Source: Escherichia coli
GTDB taxonomy: Bacteria > Pseudomonadota > Gammaproteobacteria > Enterobacterales > Enterobacteriaceae
DNA length: 64,000 nucleotides
Assembly: GCF_050320075.1 (NCBI RefSeq)
Contig: NZ_CP190018.1
Strand: one strand, 5' to 3'
The notes beneath the pieces are model-generated. The model searched no databases. It was not told the origin of the DNA and worked only from the letters and a program-made list of their open reading frames with translations. Of this stretch, positions 4,168-62,396 are shown one piece after another. The position numbers and the translations under genes were made by a program. Positions within the stretch are counted from its first letter, which is position 1. Each line of letters opens with the position of its first letter.

Positions 4168-4240
4168 GCATTAGGGGACTGGACAGATTACGTCTCTCCT
4201 CGCTTAACAAGGGCTGACGGAGGGTAATAATTGTCTATAG

Positions 4241-4792
4241 CTATCTTCTTAGCGATGTCTTTCTGGTATCACATTGGATCGGTGCAATTATTTTTCCTTT
4301 AATACCCATTATGTTAAGAAATTCAGAAACAGCTGTAATCTCATTGTTTTTTTCATTCGTCTTGATCTTCCAAGGAATCTGACTGTGCATTATTGAGAAC
4401 ACACTAATAACGTGAATCGCTCCCTTGCGACGACTCTTGTCATAAGAGTACCGGAGCGTTTTTCCATCAATTGCAATGACGTCTTTATCATCTGAAGAAT
4501 GGCAGTCAAGCATCCAGTTAATAAAGCACTCATAAAATTTTTCAGGACTGATACAGGATACAACTCTGGCAATGGTATCGTGAACAGGAATACCATTATC
4601 AAAATCACCATATTGCTTCAAAAAATCGAGATGTGTTTCCCCAAAATCCTCTATATCTTCCCAGCCTTCTGCACCCGAAATAACGGCACAAATAGTCAAC
4701 AGTAGAATATCCGATAATTTATGTTCCACTTTCCAGGCTTGTCTGTAATCGGGGATAATAGAAATATGTCCCATCAATTTTTTAAGTTCCAT
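4241..4792 (-). pseudogene. H-repeat-associated (ISAs1-family transposase-like) gene remnant, N-terminal ~183 codons only
   Basis: Aligns to the first half of the 378-codon H-rpt frame at 10493..11629, then diverges and stops. Confidence 0.7.
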
Positions 4793-4939
4793 TTTGTTCT
4801 CCTTAATTATGTAAGGAGTATTTGATCATGTATACGCAATAAAAAACAGCTTCAGGTAATGAGGAATATCTCAATTGTTAAACATAAAATGCGAATTGTC
4901 TAGTACAAAAAAGCAGCGTTACGTGATCTTTCCGTGGAT

Positions 4940-5065
4940 CGTCAAATTGTTCGAGAGAAAATACCAACATGATGGATTTTACTGTAAAAGTAATGTCGTA
5001 GTTTAAAAACTCATCATCCGGTAAAGCCTTGTGGGGCGTGGGCTTTCATACTTTTACCCTGATGT
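4940..5065 (-). repeat. H-rpt element upstream-end repeat, copy A
   Basis: About 120 bp closely similar to 11680..11810, each just upstream of an H-rpt reading frame. Confidence 0.6.
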
Positions 5066-5377
5066 CTGCTATACGCCGGACACCCTTTACGTAGCATTCG
5101 GAATTCACCCGTAAATTTATCACGGCGGTATCACGAAACCTCCGGTTCTGATGCCGCTTAGGACTAACGACACGTCAACACAGGTTCGGGTTTATTCATT
5201 TCACTGTATCTCATATAATCTGAGCACTCCCCCTGCGCTCGCTACTATGACTCTTTACCACAGCAACCGGGGTTGTTTGGGATCGGCTTTCAACAGCAGA
5301 TCCCGGTGGCTATTGCAAGTAAGTCTACTTTCCACATCAGTGTTACTGACACAGAAAATAATGAGTTATGATCCTTG

Positions 5378-5863
5378 TCATATTTTTAATATAGCCCCAT
5401 GAGCTATAGGATCAAAACCTTCTAACCATGAGGTGTTTTTATCGAATAATGCATCTGTTATATTTATATCGCCATATCTATCACATAATAAATTAGCGCC
5501 ACATAAGTCAGCACCAGAAAAATTTGAATCTTTAACGTCTGCATTGCAAAAGGTTGAATTAGTTAATATAGCACCCTCAAAGTTTGCACCTATTGACCTT
5601 GAATTACTAAAGTCACTTCCAGTGAAATCTGAGTTATTAAGAATAGCGTTCATCAGAGCCGCATTGCGAAAGACAGCATTTCTAGTTGATGTATGTTGAA
5701 TCATTACATTTCTTAAATGGGAATTTTCAAATTTCGCCCCATCAAGACAATAACCATTGAGGATGGCACGATGTAGATCCATCCCGCTAAAATCATATCC
5801 AGCAAGAGTGGTACTATCTATATCAAGAAATTTATTGGTTATTAAAAACGCGATTCTTATCAT
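5378..5863 (-). CDS. pentapeptide-repeat protein, putative immunity protein for the adjacent Rhs C-terminal toxin
   Basis: 161 aa with tandem A(D/N)LxG/F-type pentapeptide repeats; its start overlaps the Rhs stop by 4 bp (ATGA); AT-rich. Confidence 0.75.
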
Positions 5864-8800: not shown

Positions 8801-10071
8801 TTCACCACCCGCTTCAGGCCGCCCTCGCCCTCCGTGTACAGCACCTCCCGCCGGTTCAGGCTGTCCGTGATGGTCACGCGGTCCTGCCCGTACTCAAAGC
8901 GGTAGTCCAGCCCCTCCGGGTTGACCTGCTCCGTCACCCGACCGGTATCATCATACCGGTAGCGGCTCTCCGGCCTCCCCGCATAATGGTGCGCCACCAT
9001 CCGCCCGGCGTGCTCCGCATCATAAGTAAACCCGCGCACCTGCGTCCCGCTGCGGTCATACACCGCCCGCAGTTCTCCGCTGGCCGTGTACGTGTAGCGC
9101 GCCAGCGGCGCAGTCGGCAGTTCATCCGGGTATGCCGGGTCGTGTGTCAGCCATACCGCCTCCAGCCGGATACCGTTATCGGCACCGTACTCTGTACCGG
9201 TGGGCAGCGTGTCGGGGAAAAACTGAGAAGAGGAAACAGAACGGGGACTGGCCGGAGAAGATAAAGAAGACTCGCGCTGTTTACGGAAGGCTTTCGCCCG
9301 CTGCGCCTGTGTGGTCAGCGCCAGATGAAAACGGCGGCCCGCGCCGTCCGTCACCCCCGTCACCGCGCCCGCCGCTTCCCCCTCTGCCGCCCGGTGGAAG
9401 GCCAGCGTCCGCCCGAAGCCGTCCACCACGCCCGTCAGCACCCGGTATGCGGGCGGCTCCGGCGGCAGCACCTCGTCCGCCTCCGGCACCCGCTCCGGCC
9501 AGCCGAGTATCCACCACGGCCCCTGAAGGCTGTTTGTCGCCAGGTACACATGCGGGCTTAAGCGGAGACTCTCCGGCAGCACCTGCCAGAGCGCGCTTAG
9601 CGGCTGCGAACTGTGCTGCTCCGCCACCCCGCCCCTTGCCAGCCAGAACGACTCGCTGCGGCTGTAGCTTATCTCGCCGGGAAACAGCGGCTCAAAGTGA
9701 ATGCTCCTGCCGCCACTGTCGTTGAGTATCAGTTCCCGCTCATGAACCTGTAAGCGGATATCGAAGGGCGCTTTCCAGCCGGGACCAAACACCCCCACCG
9801 GCGCGGGTGTCCTGGTCCGGTAGCTGCTGTAGGCGCGGGAAAGAATAAACGGCAACGGGCCGGGCAGCGCAAGATCCGTCTCGCCCGGCAGCACCTTCGC
9901 ACCCAGTAGCGGGTTCACCGGGTTACCCTTCTGCTCCTCCACCGGGCTGTTGGGACACACCGAGCAGGCCACTCCCGTCGGCGCACCTATCAGCACCCCC
10001 GCTGAACCCTGCACAATATCCAGTCCCTTGCGGGTCATATCGCCCTGTCGCGCCGCCGGTTTTCCGCTCAT
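5860..10071 (-). CDS. full-length Rhs family protein: PAAR-like N-terminus, YD-repeat core, DPLGL boundary, variable C-terminal toxin domain
   Basis: 1403 aa; conserved Rhs N-terminus [13 protein letters not shown]; many YD/RYxYD repeats; PxxxxDPLGL motif; GC-rich core. Confidence 0.9.
5863..6291 (-). other. Rhs C-terminal variable toxin domain (~143 aa after DPLGL), family not recognised
   Basis: Sequence after the DPLGL motif is unrelated to the conserved core and lower in GC. Confidence 0.6.
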
Positions 10072-10492
10072 GGTTTATTCCTTAAATTATTTATGGTTTT
10101 ATTCTGAGTGCAATCCATACTGATTCATAACCAGTGAATAAGATTTCCCCGAATAATCTATATAAATTAGCGAAGTCCTCTTCACTAATTAACCGTAAAA
10201 TCCCGTACCAATGAAATATAAAAATAACCACCCACACAAATTTATTGCAAATATTATTTATTATTGTATATACATCATTCACTGAACGTTCTCAAACTGC
10301 ATACCTTAGAACCATCAATTAAAGCCACAACAAAAAAAATCGATTACTTTATGTCGCATGACAAATATGAATTACATATTAATCAACCTTAAAAACAATC
10401 ATCTCTTATAATTAACAGCATACCATGAGAAACACAAAATCAATTTACCATGCATACCAGGAGCATAATTAACCTCTCACCGCAGGGCGAAA

Positions 10493-11629
10493 TCATGAAG
10501 GCCCGCAGCCAGCAAGGATTAGAGAAAGGTATTCATTCTTACGTCCTGCCCGCTTTTGCTTGCGTTTAATACCCGCTTTAAAGCTATTCTCTGCGGTCAG
10601 TAAATTCATCGCGATATGTCGACAAACTGCCAGATTTTCTCCCGCTTCTCCACGAACAATCTGGCATTCATCTTCCCGCATCCCCATATCAAGTCGCCAG
10701 TGCAGTTGATTTTCTACCGACCAGTGTGCTCGTGTTGCTTCCAGGAGTTCTTTCGCCGTAAGCGTCACCGAACTTATGTAGTAGCGAAGAATACACTTCT
10801 CTGATTTCACCGCTGTTTCTCCTTCCTGTCTGCTCGCCAGCACTATTCCTATCGTGCTCAGCTCTGACCATTCATAAGCTAAATCACCCAGAGCGGTTAA
10901 ATCATGGCTCACAATGCAGCATCGTGTATCTTCCCGTCCATGCCCTTTTTCCTGCGTGCTGTAACTGTCATACCTCTCACCCAGCCACATTGTCGGCGAG
11001 TACCCGTTATCAAACGCCTCCGCTAATTTTCCCTGATTTCCTTTCAGCGCCAGCAGGTAACCGGCTTTCTTTTTCAGAATTTCACGGGCGATTATATGCT
11101 GGCAACCCATTGCATCCAGCGTGACCAGACACCCTTTTAATTCCAGCAACTGGAGCCGTTCCGGGATCGCCGTTATCTCATTCGATTTTGCCCCTGTTTT
11201 CACCTGCCCCAAAACCAGACGATTTTCTGCGCTAAAAGCACTGACCCTATGGATCACGGCATTACGTTTCGATTTATCGTAAGTACCCCGTAATGACTTA
11301 CCATCAATCGCCACAACAGAGCCTTCAGACAACGTGTGACAGTCCTTCATCTACTGGATAAAAAGGGGCTGTAATTGTTTTGCTGAAATCATTCCCATCA
11401 CTCGGGCAATCGTGTGATGGGAGGGGGTGCCATTTTCAAAATCACCATACAGGCGTAACCATTCCAGATGCTCCTCACCAAAATCAGCAATTTCTTCCCA
11501 TCCTTCAGCGCCACCGATAATGGCGGTGATCGTCAGAAAAAGGATATCCGCCAGGCTGTAACTGGTTTTCCAGGACTGGCGATAATCGTGAATAATTGAA
11601 ATTTGATCCAAAAGGCTTAGTCCGTTCAT
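10493..11629 (-). pseudogene. H-repeat-associated protein (ISAs1-family transposase-like), 378 codons interrupted by an in-frame TAG at 11351..11353
   Basis: ORFs 11351..11629 and 10493..11350 are contiguous in one frame, separated only by TAG; the fragment at 4241..4792 has W at that position. Confidence 0.7.
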
Positions 11630-11679
11630 GGTGTGCTATCCATCAAAAAGAAAGGATAAGATCACACTGAAATAAGATG

Positions 11680-17964: not shown

Positions 17965-18675
17965 ATTGTGCACAGAAAACCCCCAGCTAGGCTGGGGGTT
18001 CCGGAAAGCTTTCAGCTTTAAGCCAGTTATTAAAACCCCTTTTGATTTGTTAAAACACCTTGCGGTCTGGCAACTGCAAGTGTCAAACAAGAAATCAAAA
18101 GGGGGTCCCAATGGGGAACGAAAAGAGCTTAGCGCACACCCGATGGAACTGTAAATATCACATAGTTTTTGCGCCAAAATACCGAAGACAGGTGTTCTAC
18201 AGAGAGAAGCGTAGAGCAATAGGCAGTATTTTGAGAAAGCTGTGTGAGTGGAAAAGTGTACGGATTCTGGAAGCTGAATGCTGTGCAGATCATATCCATA
18301 TGCTTGTGGAGATCCCGCCCAAAATGAGCGTATCCGGCTTTATGGGATATCTGAAAGGGAAAAGCAGTCTGATGCTTTACGAGCAGTTTGGTGATTTGAA
18401 ATTCAAATACAGGAACAGGGAGTTCTGGTGCAGAGGGTACTACGTCGATACGGTGGGTAAGAACACGGCGAAGATACAGGATTACATAAAGCACCAGCTT
18501 GAAGAGGATAAAATGGGAGAGCAGTTATCGATTCCCTATCCGGGCAGCCCGTTTACGGGCCGTAAGTAACGAAGTTGGATGCAAATGTCAGATCGTGTGC
18601 GCCTGTTAGGGCGCGGCTGGTAAGAGAGCCTTATAGGCGCATTTGAAAAACCTCCGGCTATGCCGGAGGATATTT
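17965..18675 (+). mobile_element. IS200-like insertion sequence (IS200/IS605 family), boundaries approximate
   Basis: Left-end hairpin CCCCCAGCTAGGCTGGGGG just upstream of a 152-aa HUH/Y1 transposase; about 0.7 kb. Confidence 0.6.
18111..18569 (+). CDS. tnpA: IS200 transposase TnpA (Y1 HUH transposase, 152 aa)
   Basis: MGNEKSLAHTRWNCKYHIVFAPKYRR with HxH motif (ADHIHML) and catalytic Tyr region. Confidence 0.85.
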   Translation: MGNEKSLAHTRWNCKYHIVFAPKYRRQVFYREKRRAIGSILRKLCEWKSVRILEAECCADHIHMLVEIPPKMSVSGFMGYLKGKSSLMLYEQFGDLKFKYRNREFWCRGYYVDTVGKNTAKIQDYIKHQLEEDKMGEQLSIPYPGSPFTGRK

Positions 18676-45389: not shown

Positions 45390-45764
45390 TACCGTTGTCT
45401 CTCTTCCAGGTTTACTCCTGATAGAAAGTCATCGGCACTTGACGGTAATTTCTTACGACCAAAAACCTCTTTGCGTCACATTTTTACAACAATTATGGCA
45501 GAGAAGAATAATGCCATTGGAATGAAGAGAGTAACGAATGATTAAACTGGCTAAACCGAATGACGAAAAATTCTGGAAAACAGCACGCAATTTCGTGAAG
45601 TGATTATTTTCGTCCCTAAGGAAACCTCATAGGATGCCTGCGGGTGCCTGAGACTTTCTGTTTTCAGGCTAACCGGGAATCAGAAAGACGAAGGCCCCGA
45701 CCGATATTTCTATCAACTGTACTGCACCCATTTTGTTGGACGATGAAATGGAATAGCCCCTAAT

Positions 45765-46286
45765 ATGTCAAAGCCAAAATACCCTTTTGAAAAGCGCCTT
45801 GAAGTCGTGAATCACTACTTCACAACTGATGATGGTTACAGGATCATCTCGGCACGTTTTGGTGTCCCCCGAACCCAGGTCAGGACATGGGTTGCCCTCT
45901 ATGAAAAACATGGAGAAAAAGGTTTAATTCCCAAACCTAAAGGCGTTAGTGCTGATCCAGAGTTGCGTATTAAGGTCGTGAAAGCTGTGATCGAGCAGCA
46001 CATGTCCCTTAATCAGGCTGCTGCTCACTTTATGCTTGCTGGTAGTGGTTCTGTAGCCAGGTGGCTGAAGGTCTATGAAGAGCGCGGAGAAGCTGGTTTA
46101 CGCGCGCTCAAGATTGGCACCAAAAGAAACATTGCAATATCAGTTGATCCAGAAAAAGCGGCATCAGCATTGGAGCTGTCAAAAGACCGACGCATTGAGG
46201 ATCTTGAAAGGCAAGTTCGATTTCTTGAAACGCGGCTTATGTATCTAAAAAAGCTGAAAGCCTTAGCTCATCCCACGAAAAAGTAA
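45765..46286 (+). CDS. insJ: IS150 OrfA (InsJ), helix-turn-helix DNA-binding protein
   Basis: 173 aa MSKPKYPFEKRLEVVNHYF. Confidence 0.85.
   Translation: MSKPKYPFEKRLEVVNHYFTTDDGYRIISARFGVPRTQVRTWVALYEKHGEKGLIPKPKGVSADPELRIKVVKAVIEQHMSLNQAAAHFMLAGSGSVARWLKVYEERGEAGLRALKIGTKRNIAISVDPEKAASALELSKDRRIEDLERQVRFLETRLMYLKKLKALAHPTKK
46277..46283 (+). other. putative programmed -1 ribosomal frameshift site (A AAA AAG) joining orfA to orfB
   Basis: Slippery heptamer at the orfA/orfB overlap, as in IS3-family elements. Confidence 0.5.
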
Positions 46287-47134
46287 AAGTACTCAACGAG
46301 CTAAGGCAGTTTTATCCTCTTGATGAGCTTCTCAGGGCTGCGGAGATACCGCGCAGTACGTTTTATTACCATCTAAAGGCTCTCAGCAAGCCTGACAAGT
46401 ATGCGGACGTTAAAAAGCGTATTGGTGAGATTTATCACGAGAATAGAGGCCGATACGGATACCGTAGGGTAACGCTGTCTCTTCATCGAGAAGGGAAACA
46501 GATTAACCATAAAGCTGTTCAGCGCCTGATGGGAACCCTCTCACTTAAAGCAGCGATTAAGGTCAAGCGATACCGCTCTTACAGAGGAGAGGTAGGGCAA
46601 ACCGCCCCTAATGTTCTCCAAAGAGATTTCAAGGCTACGCGGCCAAACGAGAAGTGGGTTACCGATGTTACTGAATTTGTAGTCAATGGGCGCAAGCTGT
46701 ATTTGTCTCCAGTAATAGATCTCTTCAACAACGAAGTTATTTCTTACAGCCTTTCGGAAAGACCAGTGATGAACATGGTTGAGAATATGCTCGATCAGGC
46801 ATTCAAAAAGCTTAATCCTCACGAGCATCCTGTTCTGCACTCTGACCAGGGATGGCAGTATCGTATGAGAAGATATCAAAATATCCTTAAAGAACATGGT
46901 ATTAAACAAAGCATGTCCAGAAAAGGCAATTGTCTGGATAATGCTGTGGTGGAGTGTTTCTTTGGAACCTTAAAGTCGGAGTGTTTTTATCTTGATGAGT
47001 TCAGTAATATAAGCGAACTGAAGGATGCTGTTACGGAATATATTGAATACTACAACAGCAGAAGAATTAGCCTGAAATTAAAAGGTCTGACTCCAATTGA
47101 ATATCGGAATCAGACCTATATGCCTCGTGTTTAA
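46283..47134 (+). CDS. insK: IS150 OrfB (InsK), DDE transposase catalytic domain, expressed as an OrfAB fusion by frameshift
   Basis: Frame open from about 46268; DDE integrase-like sequence. Confidence 0.75.
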
Positions 47135-47175
47135 CTGTCCAACTTTTTGGGGTCAGTACAAACCGAGGCCAACGA

Positions 47176-52186: not shown

Positions 52187-52564
52187 TTAGTCATACTGTA
52201 TTTGCGGAGAAACTGTTGATAAAACATCAATAACATCATTTGACGTGGCAATGACATAATGCTCGATCACATTATTTTTATAAATTTCACAACTTTGCAT
52301 AGTAAACCATGCAAAGTAGGCGGAATTCACTACTCTATAGATCCCCGTTTGGTTAATACCGTGAATTCCTGACATTCCTAACAAATCACCTTCGTCAGTA
52401 ACACGAAATGAATGTATCCAGTCAAATGATAACTTAACTTCTGACTTGATCGCCGGACATATGAGGGTAAGTTCAAGCCTGGCATTTTTATAGCTTAAAT
52501 CTGATAGTTCGGCATTTTTAAAAGACAATGAAGTCGGAGTGATATTTATAAAACATTCATCCAT
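52187..52564 (-). CDS. hypothetical small protein (125 aa), AT-rich islet gene C
   Basis: Uninterrupted ORF co-directional with the two genes upstream; no recognisable family. Confidence 0.5.
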   Translation of the reverse strand: MDECFINITPTSLSFKNAELSDLSYKNARLELTLICPAIKSEVKLSFDWIHSFRVTDEGDLLGMSGIHGINQTGIYRVVNSAYFAWFTMQSCEIYKNNVIEHYVIATSNDVIDVLSTVSPQIQYD

Positions 52565-52683
52565 GTTAATACCCCTTCATATATGAGACTGCTCTCGATA
52601 GACGACACATTAACCTTCTGCAAAAACGGTGCGAGTCTGTTTACGTACCATGTATAATCGATGGACATTACTGTGATTTGAAA

Positions 52684-53142
52684 TTACCTTGTCCAGTCAT
52701 CAACCATTTTTTTCAGGGGGAACATCTGCAATACATTCATTAATGCGAAATATAATTCCCCCTGTGGCACCCATATTCTAATCTTCTCATCCCCTAAAAT
52801 GAAAAATTGCAATTGACGTTTGAAACCTAATGTTTTATCTTCAGGTAATTCAGCTTGTATTTTTTTATTGATATCATCAAGGTAGATGTGATGACAATAC
52901 TCATCAAACATACTCATTACTTCCAGACCGTTTACAGATGTCCATCTTTGTTCACTTTCCCAATAAACAAGAACCGGTTTGCGGCAGGTATATCTGCCTA
53001 AAAAGCGCTGAATGTGTTCTTCCTGATTCTCGTAAAATATTGCCTCTGCATTCGAGATTTGCCGACGCATTCGCCAGCGGATTTTTTCTTCATAAAAAGA
53101 CAATTTGTCGCATTTGGTATTACTCAAATTCATTGTCAACAA
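52684..53142 (-). CDS. hypothetical small protein (about 150 aa), AT-rich islet gene B; start uncertain
   Basis: Uninterrupted ORF; overlaps the end of islet gene A. Confidence 0.5.
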   Translation of the reverse strand: MLTMNLSNTKCDKLSFYEEKIRWRMRRQISNAEAIFYENQEEHIQRFLGRYTCRKPVLVYWESEQRWTSVNGLEVMSMFDEYCHHIYLDDINKKIQAELPEDKTLGFKRQLQFFILGDEKIRIWVPQGELYFALMNVLQMFPLKKMVDDWTR

Positions 53143-53512
53143 CTCGCATGGTTTTAAATATAAAATTTAAAAAACCGCCAAACAAATGAAGTGAAATTTC
53201 ATACTTCTTTGCCTTATAAACAATTACCGCATCTTTAATATTACCTGCATTTTGGTTATCTATAAGTTCAGCAATATCCATAACCTGCGATAAATGTTCC
53301 ACTCCCGTAAACTCGAACCTTTTTCGTTCCCTTCCGGCTGTAAATTCATCAACATAAAGTTCTGCCGTCAATATAAAATTATACTCGGTGTGGTGACATT
53401 CCATTCTGGTTTCTACTAAAACACCATCATGCCAGATAATATTGTCTAAATTTTTCATACTATTAATCCAATCCATTACTTTCTGATAAAATTTCCTCTG
53501 GAAGTTTTTCAT
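53120..53512 (-). CDS. hypothetical small protein (130 aa), AT-rich islet gene A
   Basis: Uninterrupted ORF; first gene of the three-gene islet. Confidence 0.5.
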   Translation of the reverse strand: MKNFQRKFYQKVMDWINSMKNLDNIIWHDGVLVETRMECHHTEYNFILTAELYVDEFTAGRERKRFEFTGVEHLSQVMDIAELIDNQNAGNIKDAVIVYKAKKYEISLHLFGGFLNFIFKTMRVVDNEFE

Positions 53513-53685
53513 AGAAAGAGATTAAAGCCTGACCGACGCAATCAAGCTCTATTATTCGCTCATAATACGATCTCATTAAAATATCATGCTTACTCATTGC
53601 AATACGTCCTGTTTACCATGGGCAGAGTATGAATGTAACTTATGTAAAATAGTACCGCCCTTGCTATTTTTCAGAATTCATAAAG

Positions 53686-54755
53686 GCTGAATTTACAATC
53701 CAAGTGCAACAAAAAAAGAAGTACTCATCAACTAGAATATAATTTTGTTTCCACACAAAAACCATTTCCAAATGATGAGTACTTCCTACCGACATCTTAC
53801 AATAAACGAGCGAGAAAAGATAATGATTTTACTCGCACAGGGCAAAAAACAAGCAGAAATTGCCAAAGCACTGGGACGTAGCTCCAGCACCATTTCTCGC
53901 GAGCTGAAACGACACGCTCTAGAAAGCTACAGTGCAACGAACGCACAAAACAGCTATTTGAAGCATCGTCAAAATAGCAAAGCACAGCGCAAATTAGAGC
54001 AGCCTGAATATTTCAATTTGGTGCAAGAAAAGTTTCTGACAGAAAACTGGTCGCCCGAACAAATCAGCGCACGATTAAAATTGGAAAAATCTGAATTATC
54101 CATTAGTTATTCAACCATTTATCGTGGTATTTATTCAGGGTTGTTTGATATAGGCGAACGCAAAGCCAGTCGCAAACTGCGCCACAAAGGCAAAACACGG
54201 CATACAAAAAATCATCATGAAAAACGTGGCAAAATTCAGATATCCAACCATTTGAACGACCGTCCCATTTCGGCGCAAAATCGCAGTCGCTTTGGACATT
54301 GGGAAGCCGATACCGTACTGGGTAAAGCGGGTGGAGCTTGTTTGCTGACGCTGACGGAACGCAAAAGTCGTTTTGAGTTGGTGAAGAAAATTCCTGCCAA
54401 AAAAGCCGAAGCAGTCCAAAAAGCCATGATTGAATTGCTGGATTCACATATATTGCGGTCAATTACGCCAGACCGTGGTAAAGAATTTGCCCAACATCGT
54501 TTGGTAACAGAAGCACTGGGTGTAGAATTTTACTTCCCCGAGCCGCATCAACCGTGGACACGGGGAACGAATGAAAATACAAATGGGTTACTTCGTGAAT
54601 ACTTTCCGAAGCACCAAGACATCAATCAGTGGAGCGAAGTTGATATTCAACAGGTGATCAATAAACTGAATTTACGACCACGTAAATGTTTAGGTTGGAA
54701 AACACCTTATGAAGTTTACTTCAAAAAATCGTTGCACTTGGTTTGACAATTCAAG
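53686..54755 (+). mobile_element. ISApl1 (IS30 family), upstream copy, transposase intact
   Basis: 1070 bp; imperfect terminal inverted repeats TGAATTTACAATCCAAGTGCAAC / TGAATTGTCAAACCAAGTGCAAC (reverse complement). Confidence 0.85.
53823..54746 (+). CDS. tnpA: ISApl1 transposase (IS30 family, DDE); 307 aa from MILLAQGKKQ, alternative upstream starts at 53772/53775 possible
   Basis: HTH region LGRSSSTISRELKR; C-terminal DDE integrase core. Confidence 0.8.
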   Translation: MILLAQGKKQAEIAKALGRSSSTISRELKRHALESYSATNAQNSYLKHRQNSKAQRKLEQPEYFNLVQEKFLTENWSPEQISARLKLEKSELSISYSTIYRGIYSGLFDIGERKASRKLRHKGKTRHTKNHHEKRGKIQISNHLNDRPISAQNRSRFGHWEADTVLGKAGGACLLTLTERKSRFELVKKIPAKKAEAVQKAMIELLDSHILRSITPDRGKEFAQHRLVTEALGVEFYFPEPHQPWTRGTNENTNGLLREYFPKHQDINQWSEVDIQQVINKLNLRPRKCLGWKTPYEVYFKKSLHLV

Positions 54756-54941
54756 ATACAAATTATAAATACTCTCAAGTGTATATTCAGTATGGGATTG
54801 CGCAATGATTGCCTAATAAAATTTCTGAAATATTTCTGTATCGCATAATTTTTTATATCAGATAAATTGTACTGGATTTCTTAAAAAATTGCAGTATAAT
54901 TGCCGCAATTATCCCACCGTTTATTTTTTGAGTAGTTTCTC

Positions 54942-56567
54942 ATGATGCAGCATACTTCTGTGTGGTACCGACGCTCGGTCAGTCCGTTTGTTCTTGTGGC
55001 GAGTGTTGCCGTTTTCTTGACCGCGACCGCCAATCTTACCTTTTTTGATAAAATCAGCCAAACCTATCCCATCGCGGACAATCTCGGCTTTGTGCTGACG
55101 ATCGCTGTCGTGCTCTTTGGCGCGATGCTACTGATCACCACGCTGTTATCATCGTATCGCTATGTGCTAAAGCCTGTGTTGATTTTGCTATTAATCATGG
55201 GCGCGGTGACCAGTTATTTTACTGACACTTATGGCACGGTCTATGATACGACCATGCTCCAAAATGCCCTACAGACCGACCAAGCCGAGACCAAGGATCT
55301 ATTAAACGCAGCGTTTATCATGCGTATCATTGGTTTGGGTGTGCTACCAAGTTTGCTTGTGGCTTTTGTTAAGGTGGATTATCCGACTTGGGGCAAGGGT
55401 TTGATGCGCCGATTGGGCTTGATCGTGGCAAGTCTTGCGCTGATTTTACTGCCTGTGGTGGCGTTCAGCAGTCATTATGCCAGTTTCTTTCGCGTGCATA
55501 AGCCGCTGCGTAGCTATGTCAATCCGATCATGCCAATCTACTCGGTGGGTAAGCTTGCCAGTATTGAGTATAAAAAAGCCAGTGCGCCAAAAGATACCAT
55601 TTATCACGCCAAAGACGCGGTACAAGCAACCAAGCCTGATATGCGTAAGCCACGCCTAGTGGTGTTCGTCGTCGGTGAGACGGCACGCGCCGATCATGTC
55701 AGCTTCAATGGCTATGAGCGCGATACTTTCCCACAGCTTGCCAAGATCGATGGCGTGACCAATTTTAGCAATGTCACATCGTGCGGCACATCGACGGCGT
55801 ATTCTGTGCCGTGTATGTTCAGCTATCTGGGCGCGGATGAGTATGATGTCGATACCGCCAAATACCAAGAAAATGTGCTGGATACGCTGGATCGCTTGGG
55901 CGTAAGTATCTTGTGGCGTGATAATAATTCGGACTCAAAAGGCGTGATGGATAAGCTGCCAAAAGCGCAATTTGCCGATTATAAATCCGCGACCAACAAC
56001 GCCATCTGCAACACCAATCCTTATAACGAATGCCGCGATGTCGGTATGCTCGTTGGCTTAGATGACTTTGTCGCTGCCAATAACGGCAAAGATATGCTGA
56101 TCATGCTGCACCAAATGGGCAATCACGGGCCTGCGTATTTTAAGCGATATGATGAAAAGTTTGCCAAATTCACGCCAGTGTGTGAAGGTAATGAGCTTGC
56201 CAAGTGCGAACATCAGTCCTTGATCAATGCTTATGACAATGCCTTGCTTGCCACCGATGATTTCATCGCTCAAAGTATCCAGTGGCTGCAGACGCACAGC
56301 AATGCCTATGATGTCTCAATGCTGTATGTCAGCGATCATGGCGAAAGTCTGGGTGAGAACGGTGTCTATCTACATGGTATGCCAAATGCCTTTGCACCAA
56401 AAGAACAGCGCAGTGTGCCTGCATTTTTCTGGACGGATAAGCAAACTGGCATCACGCCAATGGCAACCGATACCGTCCTGACCCATGACGCGATCACGCC
56501 GACATTATTAAAGCTGTTTGATGTCACCGCGGACAAAGTCAAAGACCGCACCGCATTCATCCGCTGA
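54942..56567 (+). CDS. mcr-1: phosphoethanolamine--lipid A transferase MCR-1 (mobile colistin resistance)
   Basis: 541 aa; MMQHTSVWYRRSVSPFVLVAS N-terminus, five-helix membrane domain, sulfatase-like catalytic domain with the nucleophile Thr in the CGTSTAYS motif. Confidence 0.95.
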   Translation: MMQHTSVWYRRSVSPFVLVASVAVFLTATANLTFFDKISQTYPIADNLGFVLTIAVVLFGAMLLITTLLSSYRYVLKPVLILLLIMGAVTSYFTDTYGTVYDTTMLQNALQTDQAETKDLLNAAFIMRIIGLGVLPSLLVAFVKVDYPTWGKGLMRRLGLIVASLALILLPVVAFSSHYASFFRVHKPLRSYVNPIMPIYSVGKLASIEYKKASAPKDTIYHAKDAVQATKPDMRKPRLVVFVVGETARADHVSFNGYERDTFPQLAKIDGVTNFSNVTSCGTSTAYSVPCMFSYLGADEYDVDTAKYQENVLDTLDRLGVSILWRDNNSDSKGVMDKLPKAQFADYKSATNNAICNTNPYNECRDVGMLVGLDDFVAANNGKDMLIMLHQMGNHGPAYFKRYDEKFAKFTPVCEGNELAKCEHQSLINAYDNALLATDDFIAQSIQWLQTHSNAYDVSMLYVSDHGESLGENGVYLHGMPNAFAPKEQRSVPAFFWTDKQTGITPMATDTVLTHDAITPTLLKLFDVTADKVKDRTAFIR

Positions 56568-56614
56568 TTTCTCCCTGTATTTTTTCCAAACCCACCGCAC
56601 ACTCCATTCGTATT

Positions 56615-57361
56615 ATGGGCGGTGGGGTGGGGTTTGTTATGCCGTATTTATCAAATAAACGCCTACTTGCTGAGATGAGTATCGCTCTTGTCATGGCGAT
56701 CGTTGCCACGCTGACCCTTGAGCACAGTCAGATTGATCTGATGGTCGCTGATTGGTTTTATCTGGGTATGGGGCATTGGATGGTTGCCAAGCAAGCTTTT
56801 TTGCCAGATTTGCTACTGTATTCTGGACTAAAAAAGCTGCTGATGGCGATGCTGATCTACTTGCTGGTTGCGACCATTTGCCGTGCTTATCATGAGAAAA
56901 AGGGCAATGCTATCACTGCCAAGTGGCTTGTCCCAGTGACAAAATTTCGCGTGCGTGAGCTTGCGTATCTGGTGCTGACTTTGATCCTAGTGCCGACAGT
57001 TGTCGCGTCATTGAAGGCATATACTCATGTGGTCTGCCCTGTGCATTTGACGATTTTTGATGGTACGCTGCCGTATTTGCCGATGCTTGATAGTATGCGT
57101 AACACCATTCCTGATAAGTGCTTTCCTGCGGCGCATGCCAGTAGCGGATTTGCGCTGTTTGCCTTTGCGTTTGCGCCAAGTTTGCGCCGCCGTCGTGGTG
57201 CGATCATCATCGTGGTGATGGCATTGGGCTGGGCGATGGGCTGCTATAAGATGATTATTGGCGATCATTTTTTGAGCCATACGGTGGTGTCGATGATGCT
57301 TGCGTGGGCGATGTCGGCAGGGCTTGCGTGGGTGTTTTTTAAGAAGGGTGAACAAGTTTAA
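56615..57361 (+). CDS. pap2: PAP2-family membrane phosphatase (start may be 56639)
   Basis: 248-aa hydrophobic protein directly downstream of mcr-1, as in the mcr-1 cassette. Confidence 0.8.
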   Translation: MGGGVGFVMPYLSNKRLLAEMSIALVMAIVATLTLEHSQIDLMVADWFYLGMGHWMVAKQAFLPDLLLYSGLKKLLMAMLIYLLVATICRAYHEKKGNAITAKWLVPVTKFRVRELAYLVLTLILVPTVVASLKAYTHVVCPVHLTIFDGTLPYLPMLDSMRNTIPDKCFPAAHASSGFALFAFAFAPSLRRRRGAIIIVVMALGWAMGCYKMIIGDHFLSHTVVSMMLAWAMSAGLAWVFFKKGEQV

Positions 57362-57364
57362 TCG

Positions 57365-58434
57365 GCTGAATTTACAATCCAAGTGCAACAAAAAAAGAAG
57401 TACTCATCAACTAGAATATAATTTTGTTTCCACACAAAAACCACTTCCAAATGATGAGTACTTCCTACCGACATCTTACAATAAACGAGCGAGAAAAGAT
57501 AATGATTTTACTCGCACAGGGCAAAAAATAAGCAGAAATTGCCAAAGCACTGGGACGTAGCTCCAGCACCATTTCTCGCGAGCTGAAACGACACGCTCTA
57601 GAAAGCTACAGTGCAACGAACGCACAAAACAGCTATTTGAAGCATCGTCAAAATAGCAAAGCACAGCGCAAATTAGAGCAGCCTGAATATTTCAATTTGG
57701 TGCAAGAAAAGTTTCTGACAGAAAACTGGTCGCCCGAACAAATCAGCGCACGATTAAAATTGGAAAAATCTGAATTATCCATTAGTTATTCAACCATTTA
57801 TCGTGGTATTTATTCAGGGTTGTTTGATATAGGCGAACGCAAAGCCAGTCGCAAACTGCGCCACAAAGGCAAAACACGGCATACAAAAAATCATCATGAA
57901 AAACGTGGCAAAATTCAGATATCCAACCATTTGAACGACCGTCCCATTTCGGCGCAAAATCGCAGTCGCTTTGGACATTGGGAAGCCGATACCGTACTGG
58001 GTAAAGCGGGTGGAGCTTGTTTGCTGACGCTGACGGAACGCAAAAGTCGTTTTGAGTTGGTGAAGAAAATTCCTGCCAAAAAAGCCGAAGCAGTCCAAAA
58101 AGCCATGATTGAATTGCTGGATTCACATATATTGCGGTCAATTACGCCAGACCGTGGTAAAGAATTTGCCCAACATCGTTTGGTAACAGAAGCACTGGGT
58201 GTAGAATTTTACTTCCCCGAGCCGCATCAACCGTGGACACGGGGAACGAATGAAAATACAAATGGGTTACTTCGTGAATACTTTCCGAAGCACCAAGACA
58301 TCAATCAGTGGAGCGAAGTTGATATTCAACAGGTGATCAATAAACTGAATTTACGACCACGTAAATGTTTAGGTTGGAAAACACCTTATGAAGTTTACTT
58401 CAAAAAATCGTTGCACTTGGTTTGACAATTCAAG
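57365..58434 (+). mobile_element. ISApl1, downstream copy, transposase inactivated
   Basis: Co-linear with the upstream copy at a fixed offset of 3679 bp; at least two substitutions seen, including the nonsense change. Confidence 0.85.
57502..58425 (+). pseudogene. tnpA: ISApl1 transposase pseudogene, codon 10 CAA->TAA (57529..57531)
   Basis: GGCAAAAAATAAGCAGAAATT here versus GGCAAAAAACAAGCAGAAATT in the upstream copy; remainder of the frame matches copy 1. Confidence 0.8.
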
Positions 58435-58436
58435 AG

Positions 58437-58470
58437 AAAAAACCCGGCGCTAAATGCTTACCGGGTTTTA
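58437..58470 (-). terminator. rho-independent terminator of hrpA
   Basis: Hairpin CCCGG...CCGGG with flanking A and T tracts just downstream of the hrpA stop. Confidence 0.55.
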
Positions 58471-58493: not shown

Positions 58494-61400
58494 TTAACCG
58501 CTAATCTGCTCCATCGCCTGCAAAATACGCTTATCTGAAATCGGATAAGGCGTACCAAGTTGTTGAGCGAAGTAACTAACGCGCAACTCTTCTATCATCC
58601 AACGGATCTCTTTCACGTCTTCATCCTCACGACGTGCGGGCGGCAGTTTGTTGATCCATTGCTGCCACGCCTGCTGGACATTTTCGACTTTCAGCATCTG
58701 AGCACGGTCGCGATGTGGGTCAACCGCCAGTTTTTCCAGCCGTTTTTCAATCGCCTGCAAATAACGCAGCGTGTCGCCCAACCGTTTGAAGCCGTTACTA
58801 GTGACAAAACCGCGATATACCAACCCGCCCATCTGCGCTTTAATGTCAGAAAGCCCCAGCGCCATGGTCATATCCACCCGCCCTTTCAGACGTTTATTGA
58901 TATTGAACACCGCAGTAAGGATTTGCTCGACCTGCTTCGCAATATCCACCACCGTGTCGTTCAGTTCAGCGCGGACTTTTTCATGCAGCGCAGCAAAACC
59001 TTCTTCCGTCCAGACCGGGCCACCATTGGCGTCGATCAGTTGATCCACACCGCAGGAGATACAGTCGTCGATCAGCTCCAGCACTTTGCCATACGGGTTA
59101 AAGTACAGCCCCAGCTTGGCTTTGTTTGGCAACTTCTCATGCAAATATTTGATTGGCGAGGGAATATTCAGCAGCAGTAGACGGCGAAGACCGTTCCACA
59201 TTGCCTGCTTTTGTTCCAGCGGATTATCAAACAGTTTGATCGCCACGCTGTCGCGTTCATCCACTAGCGCTGGCCACGCCTTCACTTTATAGTTGCCACG
59301 CTTCTGTTCGTAGCTTTCCGGCAGCTGACCAAAACTCCAGATATGTAAGCCGCTCTGCTCGATACCGTCATCCGCCACCGCAGACAGCGTTTCCTGCACT
59401 TTGCCTTTCAGCGCATCTTTCAGATCTTGTAGAGAGCGCCCTTCTTTTAGCTTCTTGTTTTTGTCATCCACCACACGGAAGGTGATTTTCAGGTGATCGG
59501 GCACCTGATCCCAGTGCCAGTCTTCGCGGTCAACGGTGACGCCAGTCATCCGCCGTAGCTCTCGTTCAAGGCTGTCGAGCAACGGCAATTCCAGCGGTGT
59601 GACGCGGCCTAAAAAAGCTTCGGCGTAGTTTGGCGCGGGCACAAAATTACGCCGTACCGGTTTCGGCAACGATTTAATCAGAGCAATCACCAGTTCGCGG
59701 CGCAGACCGGGGATCTGCCACTCAAATCCGCTCTCCTCCACCTGGTTAAGTAACGGCAGCGGGATATGTACCGTCACGCCGTCCGCATCCGCCCCTGGCT
59801 CAAACTGATAACTCAAACGCAGCTTGAGATTGCCCTGATGCCAGAAGTTCGGGTAATCCAGCTTGCTGATCTTTTCCGCCCCTTCTTTGATCAACATGCT
59901 CTTTTCAAAGTTGAGCAAATCAGGCGTTTCGCGGCTGACTTTTTTCCACCAGCTGTCGAAGTGACGTGCGGAGATCACATCGTGGCTGATGCGCTGGTCG
60001 TAAAACTCAAACAGCGTTTCGTCATCCACCAGAATATCGCGGCGACGTGTTTTGTGTTCCAGTTCTTCCACTTCGGCCCGTAGTTTCAGGTTTTCACGGA
60101 AGAATGCGTGACGCGTCTGCCAGTCACCTTCCACCAGCGCGTGGCGAATAAAGAGTTCACGACATAACGCCGGATCGATCTGGCTGTAGTTGACCTTGCG
60201 CGCGGCAACAATCGGCAAGCCATAAACAGTGACTTTTTCCGTTGCCATCACCGCGCCCTGCGCCCGTTCCCAGTGCGGTTCGCTGTAGGTGCGTTTAATC
60301 AAATGCTGAGCAACTGGCTCCACCCATTCTGGATCGATGCGTGCCGCAATGCGCCCCCACAGGCGGCTGGTTTCTACCAGTTCCGCCACCATTACCCATT
60401 TCGGCGGCTTTTTAAATAAGCCGGAACCGGGGAAAATGGAGAAACGCGCGTTACGTGCGCCGGTATATTCTTGTTTATCGGCATCTTTCATGCCGATATG
60501 GGAAAGCAAACCGGTCAGTAAGGCGATGTGAATTTCGCGATACTCCGCCGGTTCGCTGTTAACCGGAATGCCAAGTTCTTTTACCACCTGGCGCAACTGG
60601 GTGTAGATATCCTGCCATTCGCGCACGCGCAGATAGTTGAGATAATCGGTACGACACAGGCGACGGAAAGCGTTGGAAGAAAGCGCCTTTTGCTGCTCGC
60701 CAAGATAATTCCACAGATTTACAAACGCGAGGAAGTCGGATTCTTTGTCGTGGAAGCGACGATGTTTTTCGTCCGATGCCTGCTGTTTGTCCATCGGTCG
60801 TTCGCGCGGATCCTGGATGGAGAGCGCGGACGTGATAATCATCGCCTCACGCACGCAGCCATGTTTTTGCGCTTCCAGCACCATACGCGCCAGACGAGGA
60901 TCGACAGGCAATTGCGAAAGCTGGCGACCGAGCGGCGTCAGTTTATAGGCGCTGGCCTGTTCATCAGTGGTGATCGCGCCCAGCTCTTCGAGCAGACGCA
61001 CGCCATCCTGGATATTACGTTTATCCGGTGCTTCGACAAATGGGAACGCGGCGATATCGCCCAACCCCAGCGCGGTCATCTGTAAAATAACCGAGGCCAG
61101 GTTGGTACGCAGAATCTCCGGATCGGTAAACTCCGGGCGCGAGAGGAAATCGTCTTCGGAATAGAGACGAATACAGATCCCTTCGGACACACGACCACAG
61201 CGGCCTTTACGCTGGTTGGCAGACGCCTGCGAAATGGGCTCAATCGGCAAACGCTGCACTTTGGTGCGATAGCTGTAGCGGCTGATACGCGCCGTACCTG
61301 GGTCGATAACGTATTTAATCCCCGGTACGGTCAGCGACGTTTCCGCGACGTTGGTCGCCAGCACAATGCGCCGTCCACTGTGCGACTGGAACACGCGGTT

Positions 61401-62396
61401 CTGTTCGCTGTTCGAAAGCCGCGCATAAAGCGGCAAGATTTCGGTATGGCGTAAGTTCAGCTTGTTCAGCGCATCGGCGGTATCGCGAATTTCCCGCTCA
61501 CCGCTCATAAAGATCAGAATGTCGCCGGGACTTTCCTGGCTCAGTTCGTCTACGGCGTCAAAAATCGCCTGCAACTGATCGCGCTCGGTGTCATCGGCTT
61601 CTTCAACAATCGGGCGATAGCGCACTTCCACCGGATAGGTCCGACCGGAGACTTCGATAATCGGCGCATTATTAAAGTGGCGCGAAAAGCGTTCCGGGTC
61701 GATAGTCGCGGAAGTGATAATGATTTTTAGGTCAGGACGCCGCGGTAGCAACTCTTTCAAATAGCCGAGCAGAAAATCGATATTCAGGCTGCGTTCGTGC
61801 GCTTCGTCAATAATGATAGTGTCGTACTGCATCAGCAGGCGGTCTTGCTGGATCTCCGCCAGCAGGATACCGTCGGTCATCAGCTTGACCATCGTGTTAT
61901 CACTTACGTGATCGCTGAAACGCACTTTGTAACCGATGCAACCGCCCGGCTCCGTTTTCAGCTCTTCCGCAATACGGTTCGCCACCGTTCGTGCCGCCAG
62001 GCGACGCGGCTGGGTATGGCCGATCAGCCCTTTAATCCCGCGCCCCAGTTCCATACAGATTTTCGGTAGCTGAGTCGTCTTACCGGAACCGGTTTCCCCG
62101 GCGACGATCACCACCTGGTGATCACGAATCGCTTCGAGAATGTCCTTCTTTTTCTGACTAACTGGCAAATTGTCGGGATAAGTGATTTCCGGTCGTGCCG
62201 CTTCACGCAGCAGGACTTTCCCTGCCGCCTGGTCAATCTCTTTCGCCATCTCCTGGAAAATGGCCTGTTGTGCATCAGGATTTTTAACCTTCTTCACACC
62301 GTGCAGACGGCGTAAAAAACGCTGTCTGTCGCGCAGCATCAGCGAATCCAGCCGCTGCTGCAAGGCAGTAAAGGTCAATTTTTGTTGTTCTGTCAT
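58494..62396 (-). CDS. hrpA: ATP-dependent RNA helicase HrpA (DEAH-box)
   Basis: 1300 aa; Walker A GETGSGKTTQ, DEAH motif (IIIDEAHERS), helicase C-terminal and HA2 regions. Confidence 0.9.
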   Translation of the reverse strand: MTEQQKLTFTALQQRLDSLMLRDRQRFLRRLHGVKKVKNPDAQQAIFQEMAKEIDQAAGKVLLREAARPEITYPDNLPVSQKKKDILEAIRDHQVVIVAGETGSGKTTQLPKICMELGRGIKGLIGHTQPRRLAARTVANRIAEELKTEPGGCIGYKVRFSDHVSDNTMVKLMTDGILLAEIQQDRLLMQYDTIIIDEAHERSLNIDFLLGYLKELLPRRPDLKIIITSATIDPERFSRHFNNAPIIEVSGRTYPVEVRYRPIVEEADDTERDQLQAIFDAVDELSQESPGDILIFMSGEREIRDTADALNKLNLRHTEILPLYARLSNSEQNRVFQSHSGRRIVLATNVAETSLTVPGIKYVIDPGTARISRYSYRTKVQRLPIEPISQASANQRKGRCGRVSEGICIRLYSEDDFLSRPEFTDPEILRTNLASVILQMTALGLGDIAAFPFVEAPDKRNIQDGVRLLEELGAITTDEQASAYKLTPLGRQLSQLPVDPRLARMVLEAQKHGCVREAMIITSALSIQDPRERPMDKQQASDEKHRRFHDKESDFLAFVNLWNYLGEQQKALSSNAFRRLCRTDYLNYLRVREWQDIYTQLRQVVKELGIPVNSEPAEYREIHIALLTGLLSHIGMKDADKQEYTGARNARFSIFPGSGLFKKPPKWVMVAELVETSRLWGRIAARIDPEWVEPVAQHLIKRTYSEPHWERAQGAVMATEKVTVYGLPIVAARKVNYSQIDPALCRELFIRHALVEGDWQTRHAFFRENLKLRAEVEELEHKTRRRDILVDDETLFEFYDQRISHDVISARHFDSWWKKVSRETPDLLNFEKSMLIKEGAEKISKLDYPNFWHQGNLKLRLSYQFEPGADADGVTVHIPLPLLNQVEESGFEWQIPGLRRELVIALIKSLPKPVRRNFVPAPNYAEAFLGRVTPLELPLLDSLERELRRMTGVTVDREDWHWDQVPDHLKITFRVVDDKNKKLKEGRSLQDLKDALKGKVQETLSAVADDGIEQSGLHIWSFGQLPESYEQKRGNYKVKAWPALVDERDSVAIKLFDNPLEQKQAMWNGLRRLLLLNIPSPIKYLHEKLPNKAKLGLYFNPYGKVLELIDDCISCGVDQLIDANGGPVWTEEGFAALHEKVRAELNDTVVDIAKQVEQILTAVFNINKRLKGRVDMTMALGLSDIKAQMGGLVYRGFVTSNGFKRLGDTLRYLQAIEKRLEKLAVDPHRDRAQMLKVENVQQAWQQWINKLPPARREDEDVKEIRWMIEELRVSYFAQQLGTPYPISDKRILQAMEQISG

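Follow-up and report, generated by a model that had tools for sequence, protein, structure and literature searches.

The window analysed (the whole stretch of 64,000 nucleotides) almost certainly carries one copy of Tn6330 (ISApl1-mcr-1.1-pap2-ISApl1, 4749 bp) that has transposed into an intergenic site of the E. coli chromosome, with duplication of the dinucleotide AG. With less assurance, the balance of the evidence also favours the view that this copy belongs to a distinct and rare lineage of Tn6330, one that has lost its downstream transposase (Q27*) yet still transposes as a unit; the same 4749-bp variant occupies two unrelated sites in chromosomes, and a separate 2-bp duplication accompanies each.

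The unit showed two direct repeats of 1070 bp each (53686-54755 and 57365-58434), in the same orientation and with the same order of IRL and IRR, and between them a passenger of exactly 2609 bp (1070 + 2609 + 1070 = 4749 bp). Its parts and immediate borders are as follows.

53684..53685, no strand: target-site duplication AG, left copy (flank sequence; the joined flanks match chromosomes)
53686..54755, plus strand: upstream ISApl1, 1070 bp (IRL 53688-53710, IRR 54731-54753; 'TTTCCAA' marker at IS position 80)
53772..54746, plus strand: intact ISApl1 transposase gene, 324 aa, HTH_38 + rve (NF033563, Pfam)
54756..57364, plus strand: mcr-1/pap2 passenger, 2609 bp (AT at the start, CG at the end)
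54942..56567, plus strand: mcr-1.1, phosphoethanolamine-lipid A transferase, 541 aa (identity to MCR-1.1 genes; NF000465)
56639..57361, plus strand: pap2, PAP2-family membrane phosphatase, 240 aa as annotated (NF028536; the ORF from 56615 has 248 aa)
57365..58434, plus strand: downstream ISApl1, 1070 bp (IRL 57367-57389, IRR 58410-58432; 'CTTCCAA' marker at IS position 80)
57451..58425, plus strand: downstream transposase pseudogene (C>T at 57529; codon 27 = TAA, 57529-57531, in HTH_38)
58435..58436, no strand: target-site duplication AG, right copy (flank sequence)
58437..58470, minus strand: terminator-like hairpin 3' of hrpA (AAAACCCGG...CCGGGUUUUUU), intact (sequence and fold)

The terminal inverted repeats TGAATTTACAATCCAAGTGCAAC / TGAATTGTCAAACCAAGTGCAAC were found at the four IS ends only, with a chance expectation of 0. 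At the outer borders AG stands on either side (left ...CATAAAG/IS, right IS/AGAAAAAAC, the slash marking the junction). The inner junctions read ...CAAG/ATAC and ...AATCG/GCTG; in other words, the first dinucleotide of the passenger is AT and the last is CG. These upstream and downstream dinucleotides, regarded as ancestral, and a passenger of 2609 bp have been published for Tn6330 (PMC5821093). Three plasmid copies of Tn6330 cut at identical boundaries showed 2-bp duplications of their own (GA, TG and GC). An earlier interpretation of this DNA, the sequence-only reading, had described two direct 1070-bp IS30-family repeats, an inter-IS segment of 2609 bp and AG on both sides, all of which was confirmed base for base; the 541-aa ORF (54942-56567) and the PAP2 ORF (56615/56639-57361) that it listed are both present. 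The repeats are indeed direct and 1070 bp long, but they are not identical: two bases differ, at IS position 80 (T upstream, C downstream) and at IS position 165 (C upstream, T downstream). The T/C difference at position 80 is a published marker of the upstream and downstream copies in Tn6330 (PMC6349718). In a scan of the element for promoter and terminator consensus sequences the counts did not exceed those of shuffled sequences and were not informative.

The identification of the repeats as ISApl1 rests on several concordant features: their length, the inverted repeats at both ends, the match of the upstream transposase to the NCBIfam model NF033563 (IS30 family transposase; 309 bits, cutoff 80), its Pfam domains HTH_38 (residues 5-48) and rve (174-261), and the annotation of identical copies. 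In a plasmid Tn6330 copy with an identical left IS, this gene has the coordinates of WP_012478345.1, and PGAP labels identical IS copies 'IS30-like element ISApl1 family transposase'. The whole unit was identical at 4748 of 4749 positions to the plasmid Tn6330 copies of pHNSHP24-3 (NZ_CP104791.1) and pEC2-4 (NZ_CP016184.1), both annotated as ISApl1 / MCR-1.1 / PAP2 / ISApl1, and 100% identical to the chromosomal Tn6330 of E. coli YZLc1-3. The name Tn6330, proposed from the letters alone, is thereby upheld. At least 80% of the unit was present in 332 plasmid records.

The 541-aa protein had been recognised as MCR-1, and rightly so. Its gene is identical in DNA to genes annotated MCR-1.1 (WP_049589868.1; AMRFinder 100%). 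The protein scored 1302.7 bits with the MCR-1 model NF000465 (cutoff 1100), with the MCR-2 and MCR-6 models below their own cutoffs, and aligned end to end with MCR-1 chains of the PDB; its matches there include the full-length entry 9nww and the entries for the catalytic domain. All six of the residues E246, T285, H395, D465, H466 and H478 were found at the expected positions; we take Thr285 to be the catalytic nucleophile and the other five to be zinc or substrate ligands of MCR-1. The second passenger protein scored 547.6 bits with NF028536 (PAP2_near_MCR1; cutoff 475), and pap2 in identical copies is annotated WP_039003037.1. MCR-1.1 would act in the inner membrane as a zinc-dependent transferase which moves phosphoethanolamine from phosphatidylethanolamine to a lipid A phosphate. 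The modified lipid A would make the outer membrane less negative and weaken the binding of polymyxins. Given the identity to characterised copies, one expects colistin resistance in the strain, conferred by a chromosomal mcr-1.1 that is inherited stably; mcr-1 expression and the MIC are likewise inferred from the sequence. With mcr-1 in single copy, a colistin MIC of roughly 4-8 mg/L would be expected.

It had also been stated that the Tn6330 was complete. This holds for both insertion sequences and all four inverted repeats, but the transposase gene is intact in one ISApl1 copy only. In the downstream copy a C>T substitution at window position 57529 (Tn position 3844) creates a TAA at codon 27 (Q27*), inside HTH_38, and what remains open is at most a 262-aa ORF that starts with a TTG (57637). 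In NZ_CP123240.1 and NZ_CP190349.1 this allele carries the PGAP label 'internal stop'. Since Tn6330 is defined by its structure, the Q27* copy is still Tn6330, in a degenerate variant. The unit retains all four inverted repeats and an intact upstream transposase gene.

The Q27* allele is rare. It was present in none of 435 ISApl1-bearing plasmid records, in two of 330 E. coli records and in two of 5,426 complete E. coli genomes. The two genomes are those of YZLc1-3 (NZ_CP123240.1) and EC17CM2 (NZ_CP190349.1), chicken isolates from China, in which the transposon is identical to the window copy at 4749 and 4748 of 4749 positions, respectively. In both it is flanked by CT on either side and lies within an ICE-like island with integrase, TraF and ArdA genes. 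A third record, CP077680.1, showed the same C>T in both of its IS copies while retaining the position-80 marker. It was brought up by a search with the 262-aa truncated transposase product, which proved to be an unspecific handle for Q27*, as other lesions (indels, IS insertion) give the same gene call. The presence of the substitution in both IS copies of CP077680.1 suggests a position that may mutate recurrently or undergo short-patch conversion, and the argument for identity by descent is somewhat weakened by this. The literature searched for strain YZLc1-3, for ISApl1 transposases with nonsense mutations or truncations, and for mcr-1 within ICEs or genomic islands offered nothing of relevance.

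The explanation for these observations may lie in transposition of the mutated element. An identical Q27* transposon at a second site with a 2-bp duplication of its own implies that the variant moved after the mutation had arisen. Among the complete genomes there was no wild-type Tn6330 at the ICE site, all ICE-site copies in them carrying Q27*, and as no wild-type counterpart is known for either site, the order of events, with the mutation before both insertions, is a matter of parsimony. To judge from these copies, the half-disabled variant has evidently still moved. Presumably either the upstream ISApl1 copy or some other ISApl1 of the cell supplied the transposase, although this, like the direction of movement between the hrpA-side and ICE-like sites, is inferred.

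It might be argued instead that one dead transposase stops Tn6330, which would make the window copy a fixed, immobile relic, and that Q27* arose at the two sites by recurrent independent mutation. Loss of ISApl1 function is a documented route to stabilisation of mcr-1 (PMC5821093; PMC7056805), the mutated second IS copy of CP077680.1 is compatible with a mutable position, and He et al. (PMC6349718) saw transposition of intact Tn6330 only. However, He et al. removed entire IS copies or inverted repeats and not a single transposase ORF, whereas the window copy retains all four inverted repeats and an intact upstream transposase. Moreover, the window transposon agrees with that of YZLc1-3 along its full length, and the allele is absent from 328 of the 330 E. 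coli records as well as from all of the plasmid records. Because of this rarity an independent origin at two sites is unparsimonious, and we regard the relic explanation as rather improbable. A second objection, that Q27* is a sequencing or consensus error in an ordinary Tn6330 with two intact transposase genes, is considerably less likely still. The change is a single substitution beside an A6 homopolymer (GGGCAAAAAA[C>T]AAGC), where a long-read consensus can go wrong, but homopolymer errors are typically indels, and the same substitution occurs in three independent assemblies (NZ_CP123240.1, NZ_CP190349.1 and CP077680.1) in which the transposon is otherwise identical or nearly so.

The preferred reading, a genuine insertion of Tn6330 into the chromosome, is borne out by the surroundings of the element. 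When the flanks were joined with a single AG, the resulting 1400 nt matched many E. coli chromosomes at 100%. The AG on both sides together with this perfect empty site, which contains a single AG, demonstrates that the unit truly transposed and duplicated 2 bp of its target. The window is collinear with the E. coli chromosome NZ_CP042899.1 at 99.98% except for an IS150 and the Tn6330 insertion. Thus the sequence-only reading was right in its claim of a chromosomal copy brought in by ISApl1 transposition with a 2-bp duplication. That a plasmid Tn6330 was wrongly joined to the chromosome contig at repeated copies of ISApl1 is the least credible alternative and hardly deserves weight. ISApl1 is often multi-copy, a genome having it in as many as 41 places, and short-read assembly can go astray at repeats of about 1 kb. 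But both junctions lie exactly at the IS ends with the chromosomal AG on each side, the sequence without the unit and one AG is 100% identical to that of uninterrupted chromosomes, a chimeric join does not produce a 2-bp duplication, and the site agrees with the known target preference of ISApl1.

The chromosomal order is narI...trg-hokB-cybB-gapC-aldA-ydcF-[3 small ORFs]-hrpA-azoR-pdxI. The neighbours named from the letters (ydcF, aldA, hrpA and azoR) are therefore found in their chromosomal context, but the genes immediately to the left of the insertion are three accessory ORFs and not ydcF. These ORFs, for which NCBIfam and PADLOC searches gave no match, form a small accessory islet between ydcF and the insertion. 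On the other side, hrpA (ORF 58494-62396, minus strand; stop codon 58494-58496) is followed by its terminator, and the transposon lies just past it, at the 3' edge of the U-tract of the hairpin and 58 nt beyond the hrpA stop codon. No annotated gene is interrupted. The target TTCATAA[AG]AAAAAAC has AT-rich flanks and a less AT-rich duplicated dinucleotide. The same preference was seen in 27 experimental ISApl1 insertions (PMC6349718), and the hrpA-side target agrees with it. The IS30 family is described in the literature as transposing by a copy-out/paste-in route via an IR-IR junction with a 2-bp spacer. Transposition of this kind by ISApl1 into the AT-rich intergenic site between the three-ORF islet and the hrpA terminator would have duplicated the AG. 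For wild-type Tn6330 the reported frequency of transposition is ~1e-6 per cell.

The same insertion was not found elsewhere. With the transposon plus 500-bp flanks as a query, none of the complete E. coli genomes covered more than 83%, i.e. the transposon alone, and the hrpA-side insertion was not seen in any of the 5,426. An exact look-up of the HrpA protein gave 35 contigs, a small sample (24/8822 index blocks), none of which has the transposon beside hrpA, and a literature search on Tn6330 with hrpA found nothing relevant.

As chromosomal mcr-1 is inherited without the cost and instability of a plasmid, the strain should retain this last-resort resistance even when unselected. The two-ended Tn6330 with its intact upstream transposase means, on the other hand, that mcr-1 could hop back onto plasmids. 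A chromosomal Tn6330 near hrpA is thus worth flagging in surveillance, though the scientific addition is small: what is new is the insertion site and a second location for the rare variant with one dead transposase, which hints at how Tn6330 decays while remaining mobile. If the proposed history of this variant is true, it would be evidence from nature that mcr-1 can be moved by a single transposase gene whose product acts on the distal IRR. Decay by nonsense mutation, first in one IS and later in both (the state of CP077680.1), would be a route to mcr-1 stabilisation unlike the deletion route described, and the ICE-like island of poultry E. coli may be a reservoir for hops of the variant within chromosomes.

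The element, its mechanism and its occurrence in chromosomes are already established; the hrpA-side insertion site is unreported. Compared with plasmid Tn6330 (pHNSHP24-3, pEC2-4; Snesrud et al. 2016/2018), the window copy has the same length, passenger, AT/CG dinucleotides, 2-bp duplication, MCR-1.1 and T/C marker, but it differs in the C>T that gives Q27* and in its chromosomal location beside hrpA. With the chromosomal copies of YZLc1-3 and EC17CM2 it shares the Q27* variant and its 'internal stop', whereas those copies lie in other surroundings, the integrase/TraF/ArdA island, with a CT duplication. In community E. coli sampled in Vietnam, Yamaguchi et al. 2020 (PMC7056805) described chromosomal Tn6330 'at various positions', and several of their genomes (AP0218xx and AP0279xx records) were among the best matches. 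Both cases show a complete, two-ended chromosomal Tn6330; the insertion sites differ, and target duplications were reported there as not found, while the duplication and the empty site of the window are unambiguous. With IS30-family composite transposons and the (IS30)2 / IR-IR junction pathway the window copy has in common a transposase of the HTH_38 + DDE (rve) type, a 2-bp duplication and AT-rich targets. It departs from them in that one of its two transposase genes is inactive, and the mechanism proposed for it is carried over from that literature.

The unit at 53686-58434 is bounded and built like a composite transposon. A repeat search of the window returned one family of direct repeats with a start-to-start spacing of 3679 bp, which pairwise alignment and direct comparison placed as two 1070-bp units at 53686-54755 and 57365-58434, with exactly 2609 bp between them. 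Terminal inverted repeats of the ISApl1 type (TGAATTTACAATCCAAGTGCAAC; the version on the other strand is the same with three mismatches) were found only at the four IS ends, where none would be expected in the window by chance. The left outer flank runs from TTCATAAAG into GCTGAATTT and the right outer flank from CAATTCAAG into AGAAAAAACC, and an AG dinucleotide abuts both ends of the 4749-bp unit. Three plasmid copies, cut at the same positions and carrying their own 2-bp duplications (GA, TG and GC), independently confirm these boundaries. The inner junctions of the passenger segment retain the ancestral AT and CG dinucleotides, which together with a 2609-bp segment figure in the description of Tn6330 by Snesrud et al. 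(PMC5821093). The sequence-only reading had proposed a directly repeated IS30-family pair of 1070 bp, a 2609-bp segment between them and AG on both sides, and all of this holds.

The unit is nearly identical (99.9-100% among the matches listed) to hundreds of records annotated as two "IS30-like element ISApl1 family transposase" genes, "MCR-1.1" and "PAP2 family protein". It differs from the plasmids pHNSHP24-3 (NZ_CP104791.1) and pEC2-4 (NZ_CP016184.1) at one base of 4749, and mcr-1 is therefore identical to genes typed as mcr-1.1 at 100%. Profile models agreed: MCR-1 family NF000465 scored 1302.7 bits (cutoff 1100), while the MCR-2 and MCR-6 models stayed under their own cutoffs; PAP2_near_MCR1 scored 547.6 bits (cutoff 475) and the IS30-family transposase model 309 bits (cutoff 80). 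Solved MCR-1 structures align with the protein over its full length, and E246, T285, H395, D465, H466 and H478, the residues named in the MCR-1 structure papers, are all present. The earlier recognition of MCR-1, the ISApl1 repeats and the PAP2 gene is thus confirmed, and by its sequence the unit is an instance of the known element Tn6330. Identity with characterised copies and published work suggest that mcr-1 would be expressed and that its product would transfer phosphoethanolamine from phosphatidylethanolamine to lipid A, lowering polymyxin binding.

An empty-site query was made by joining the 700 nt of left flank up to and including the first AG to the 700 nt of right flank that follow the second. 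These 1400 nt matched many E. coli chromosomes, for example NZ_CP042899.1, over their full length at 100%, so that an existing uninterrupted allele is restored once the 4749-bp unit and one AG are taken out. The restored allele and the 2-bp duplication signature argue against recombination or mis-assembly as the origin of the unit. As first proposed for ISApl1, the unit is, on the evidence of these flanks, an arrival by transposition with a 2-bp target duplication; identity and the literature suggest that it would have used the IS30-type copy-out/paste-in pathway via an IR-IR junction. The target, TTCATAA[AG]AAAAAAC, has AT-rich flanks around a less AT-rich duplicated pair, the same pattern as in 27 experimental Tn6330 insertions (He et al., PMC6349718). 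A terminator-like hairpin downstream of hrpA is left intact; the transposon entered at the 3' edge of its U-tract, 58 nt past the stop codon. No annotated gene is interrupted, because the reference annotation has a short pseudogene fragment on one side of the insertion point and hrpA on the other.

The E. coli CFSAN061763 chromosome matches the whole window in three blocks (99.98-100%), interrupted only by a 1443-bp IS150 and by Tn6330. The annotated order in CFSAN061763 is narI...RHS...ansP...ydcS-V...tehAB...trg, followed by hokB, cybB, gapC, aldA, ydcF, three hypothetical genes, hrpA, azoR and pdxI. Two features of this region are:

45718-47160, IS150 between trg and hokB, ends TGTACTG...CAGTACA, 3-bp duplication AAC
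52187-53512, three small AT-rich minus-strand ORFs left of the insertion, between ydcF and hrpA (52187-52564, 52684-53142 and 53120-53512)

The chromosomal location claimed earlier is supported by this collinearity, but ydcF is not the immediate left neighbour, since the three ORFs lie there. This stretch is an accessory islet; the joined-flank query, which has its left half inside it, was matched over at least 80% of its length by only 586 of 5418 genomes. The ORFs had no NCBIfam, PADLOC or recorded Pfam matches, and our guess is that they resemble orphan immunity-type genes. Several other E. coli chromosomes have the IS150 at this site, annotated as "IS3-like element IS150 family transposase", and the closest reference chromosome lacks it. 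Annotation transferred from the 99.98%-identical reference (L005) also places an RHS core protein gene and a downstream pentapeptide-repeat gene between two degraded ISAs1 transposase pseudogenes (~4240-11630), an IS200C copy (~18110-18570) and a pseudogenised yncG in the window.

Alignment and direct comparison showed that the two ISApl1 copies differ at two positions. At IS position 80 the upstream copy has T and the downstream copy C, as in the plasmid references; He et al. (PMC6349718) described this difference as a TTTCCAA/CTTCCAA marker. At IS position 165 (window 57529) the upstream copy has C and the downstream copy T, changing CAA (Gln27) to TAA in the downstream transposase gene (Q27*), and this T is the sole base separating the transposon from the plasmid references. 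Gln27 lies within the N-terminal HTH_38 domain (residues 5-48), and the longest ORF left, of 262 aa with a TTG start, lacks that domain. In IS30 the N-terminal HTH is required for IR recognition, so that loss of function is expected for the downstream gene. The Tn6330 interpretation stands, corrected in one respect: the downstream transposase gene is a pseudogene. The upstream transposase gene and all four IRs are intact, so this copy may still be able to move, with a single functional transposase gene.

Exact matches to an 81-nt probe with the mutation at its centre came from 2 of 330 complete-genome records of E. coli and from none of 435 plasmid records. Both genomes are chicken isolates from China, YZLc1-3 (Yangzhou; NZ_CP123240.1) and EC17CM2 (Zhejiang; NZ_CP190349.1), in which PGAP flags the downstream transposase with an "internal stop". 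Their transposons match ours at 4749/4749 and 4748/4749 positions, and are flanked by CT on each side within a chromosomal island with integrase, TraF and ArdA. The island, seen at 880-14081 of L006 (NZ_CP123240.1) and in L007, is ICE-like (integrase/TraF/PilI/ArdA/DUF1281). A traF-like gene was probably truncated by the insertion, as the annotated TraF start next to the island copies falls within the end of the IS.

Two unrelated sites thus hold the variant, with a separate 2-bp duplication at each. Parsimony favours a mutation that arose first and a transposition that followed it, with transposase that would have been supplied by the upstream copy or by a further ISApl1 in the same cell. Wild-type Tn6330 was found at neither site among E. 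coli complete genomes, so the movement may have run in either direction. CP077680.1 (L012 5729-10477) has the same island insertion as YZLc1-3 with Q27* in both ISApl1 copies; this transposon would not be expected to make transposase of its own. It keeps the T/C marker, 85 bp from the stop position, despite the double stop, which points to gene conversion over a short patch or to a C>T change that occurred more than once. Since conversion or a second hit can occur at this position, identity by descent of Q27* across the sites is likely, not proven.

Many public ISApl1 copies (L008-L011, L014, L016, L017) carry the same 262-aa truncated transposase call through other lesions, including indels of ~7-11 bp near the 5' end. 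A DDE_Tnp_1 element interrupts one copy (L010) at IS position 234 and apparently also another (L017), of which only the 3' 837 bp are present. Decay of the ISApl1 transposase seems frequent. In two ENA metagenome contigs a beta-lactamase gene is flanked by ISApl1 copies.

Insertion on the hrpA side was found in none of 5,426 complete E. coli genomes, and we found no paper on this site, the Q27* allele or strains YZLc1-3 and EC17CM2 in a literature search of incomplete coverage. A chromosomal Tn6330 copy is relevant for surveillance, and the Q27* variant offers a modest lead on how the element decays yet stays mobile. Chromosomal two-ended Tn6330 is common among the best database matches and has been documented "at various positions" (PMC7056805); set against these, the new points are minor, namely the hrpA-side site and a second location for the Q27* variant.
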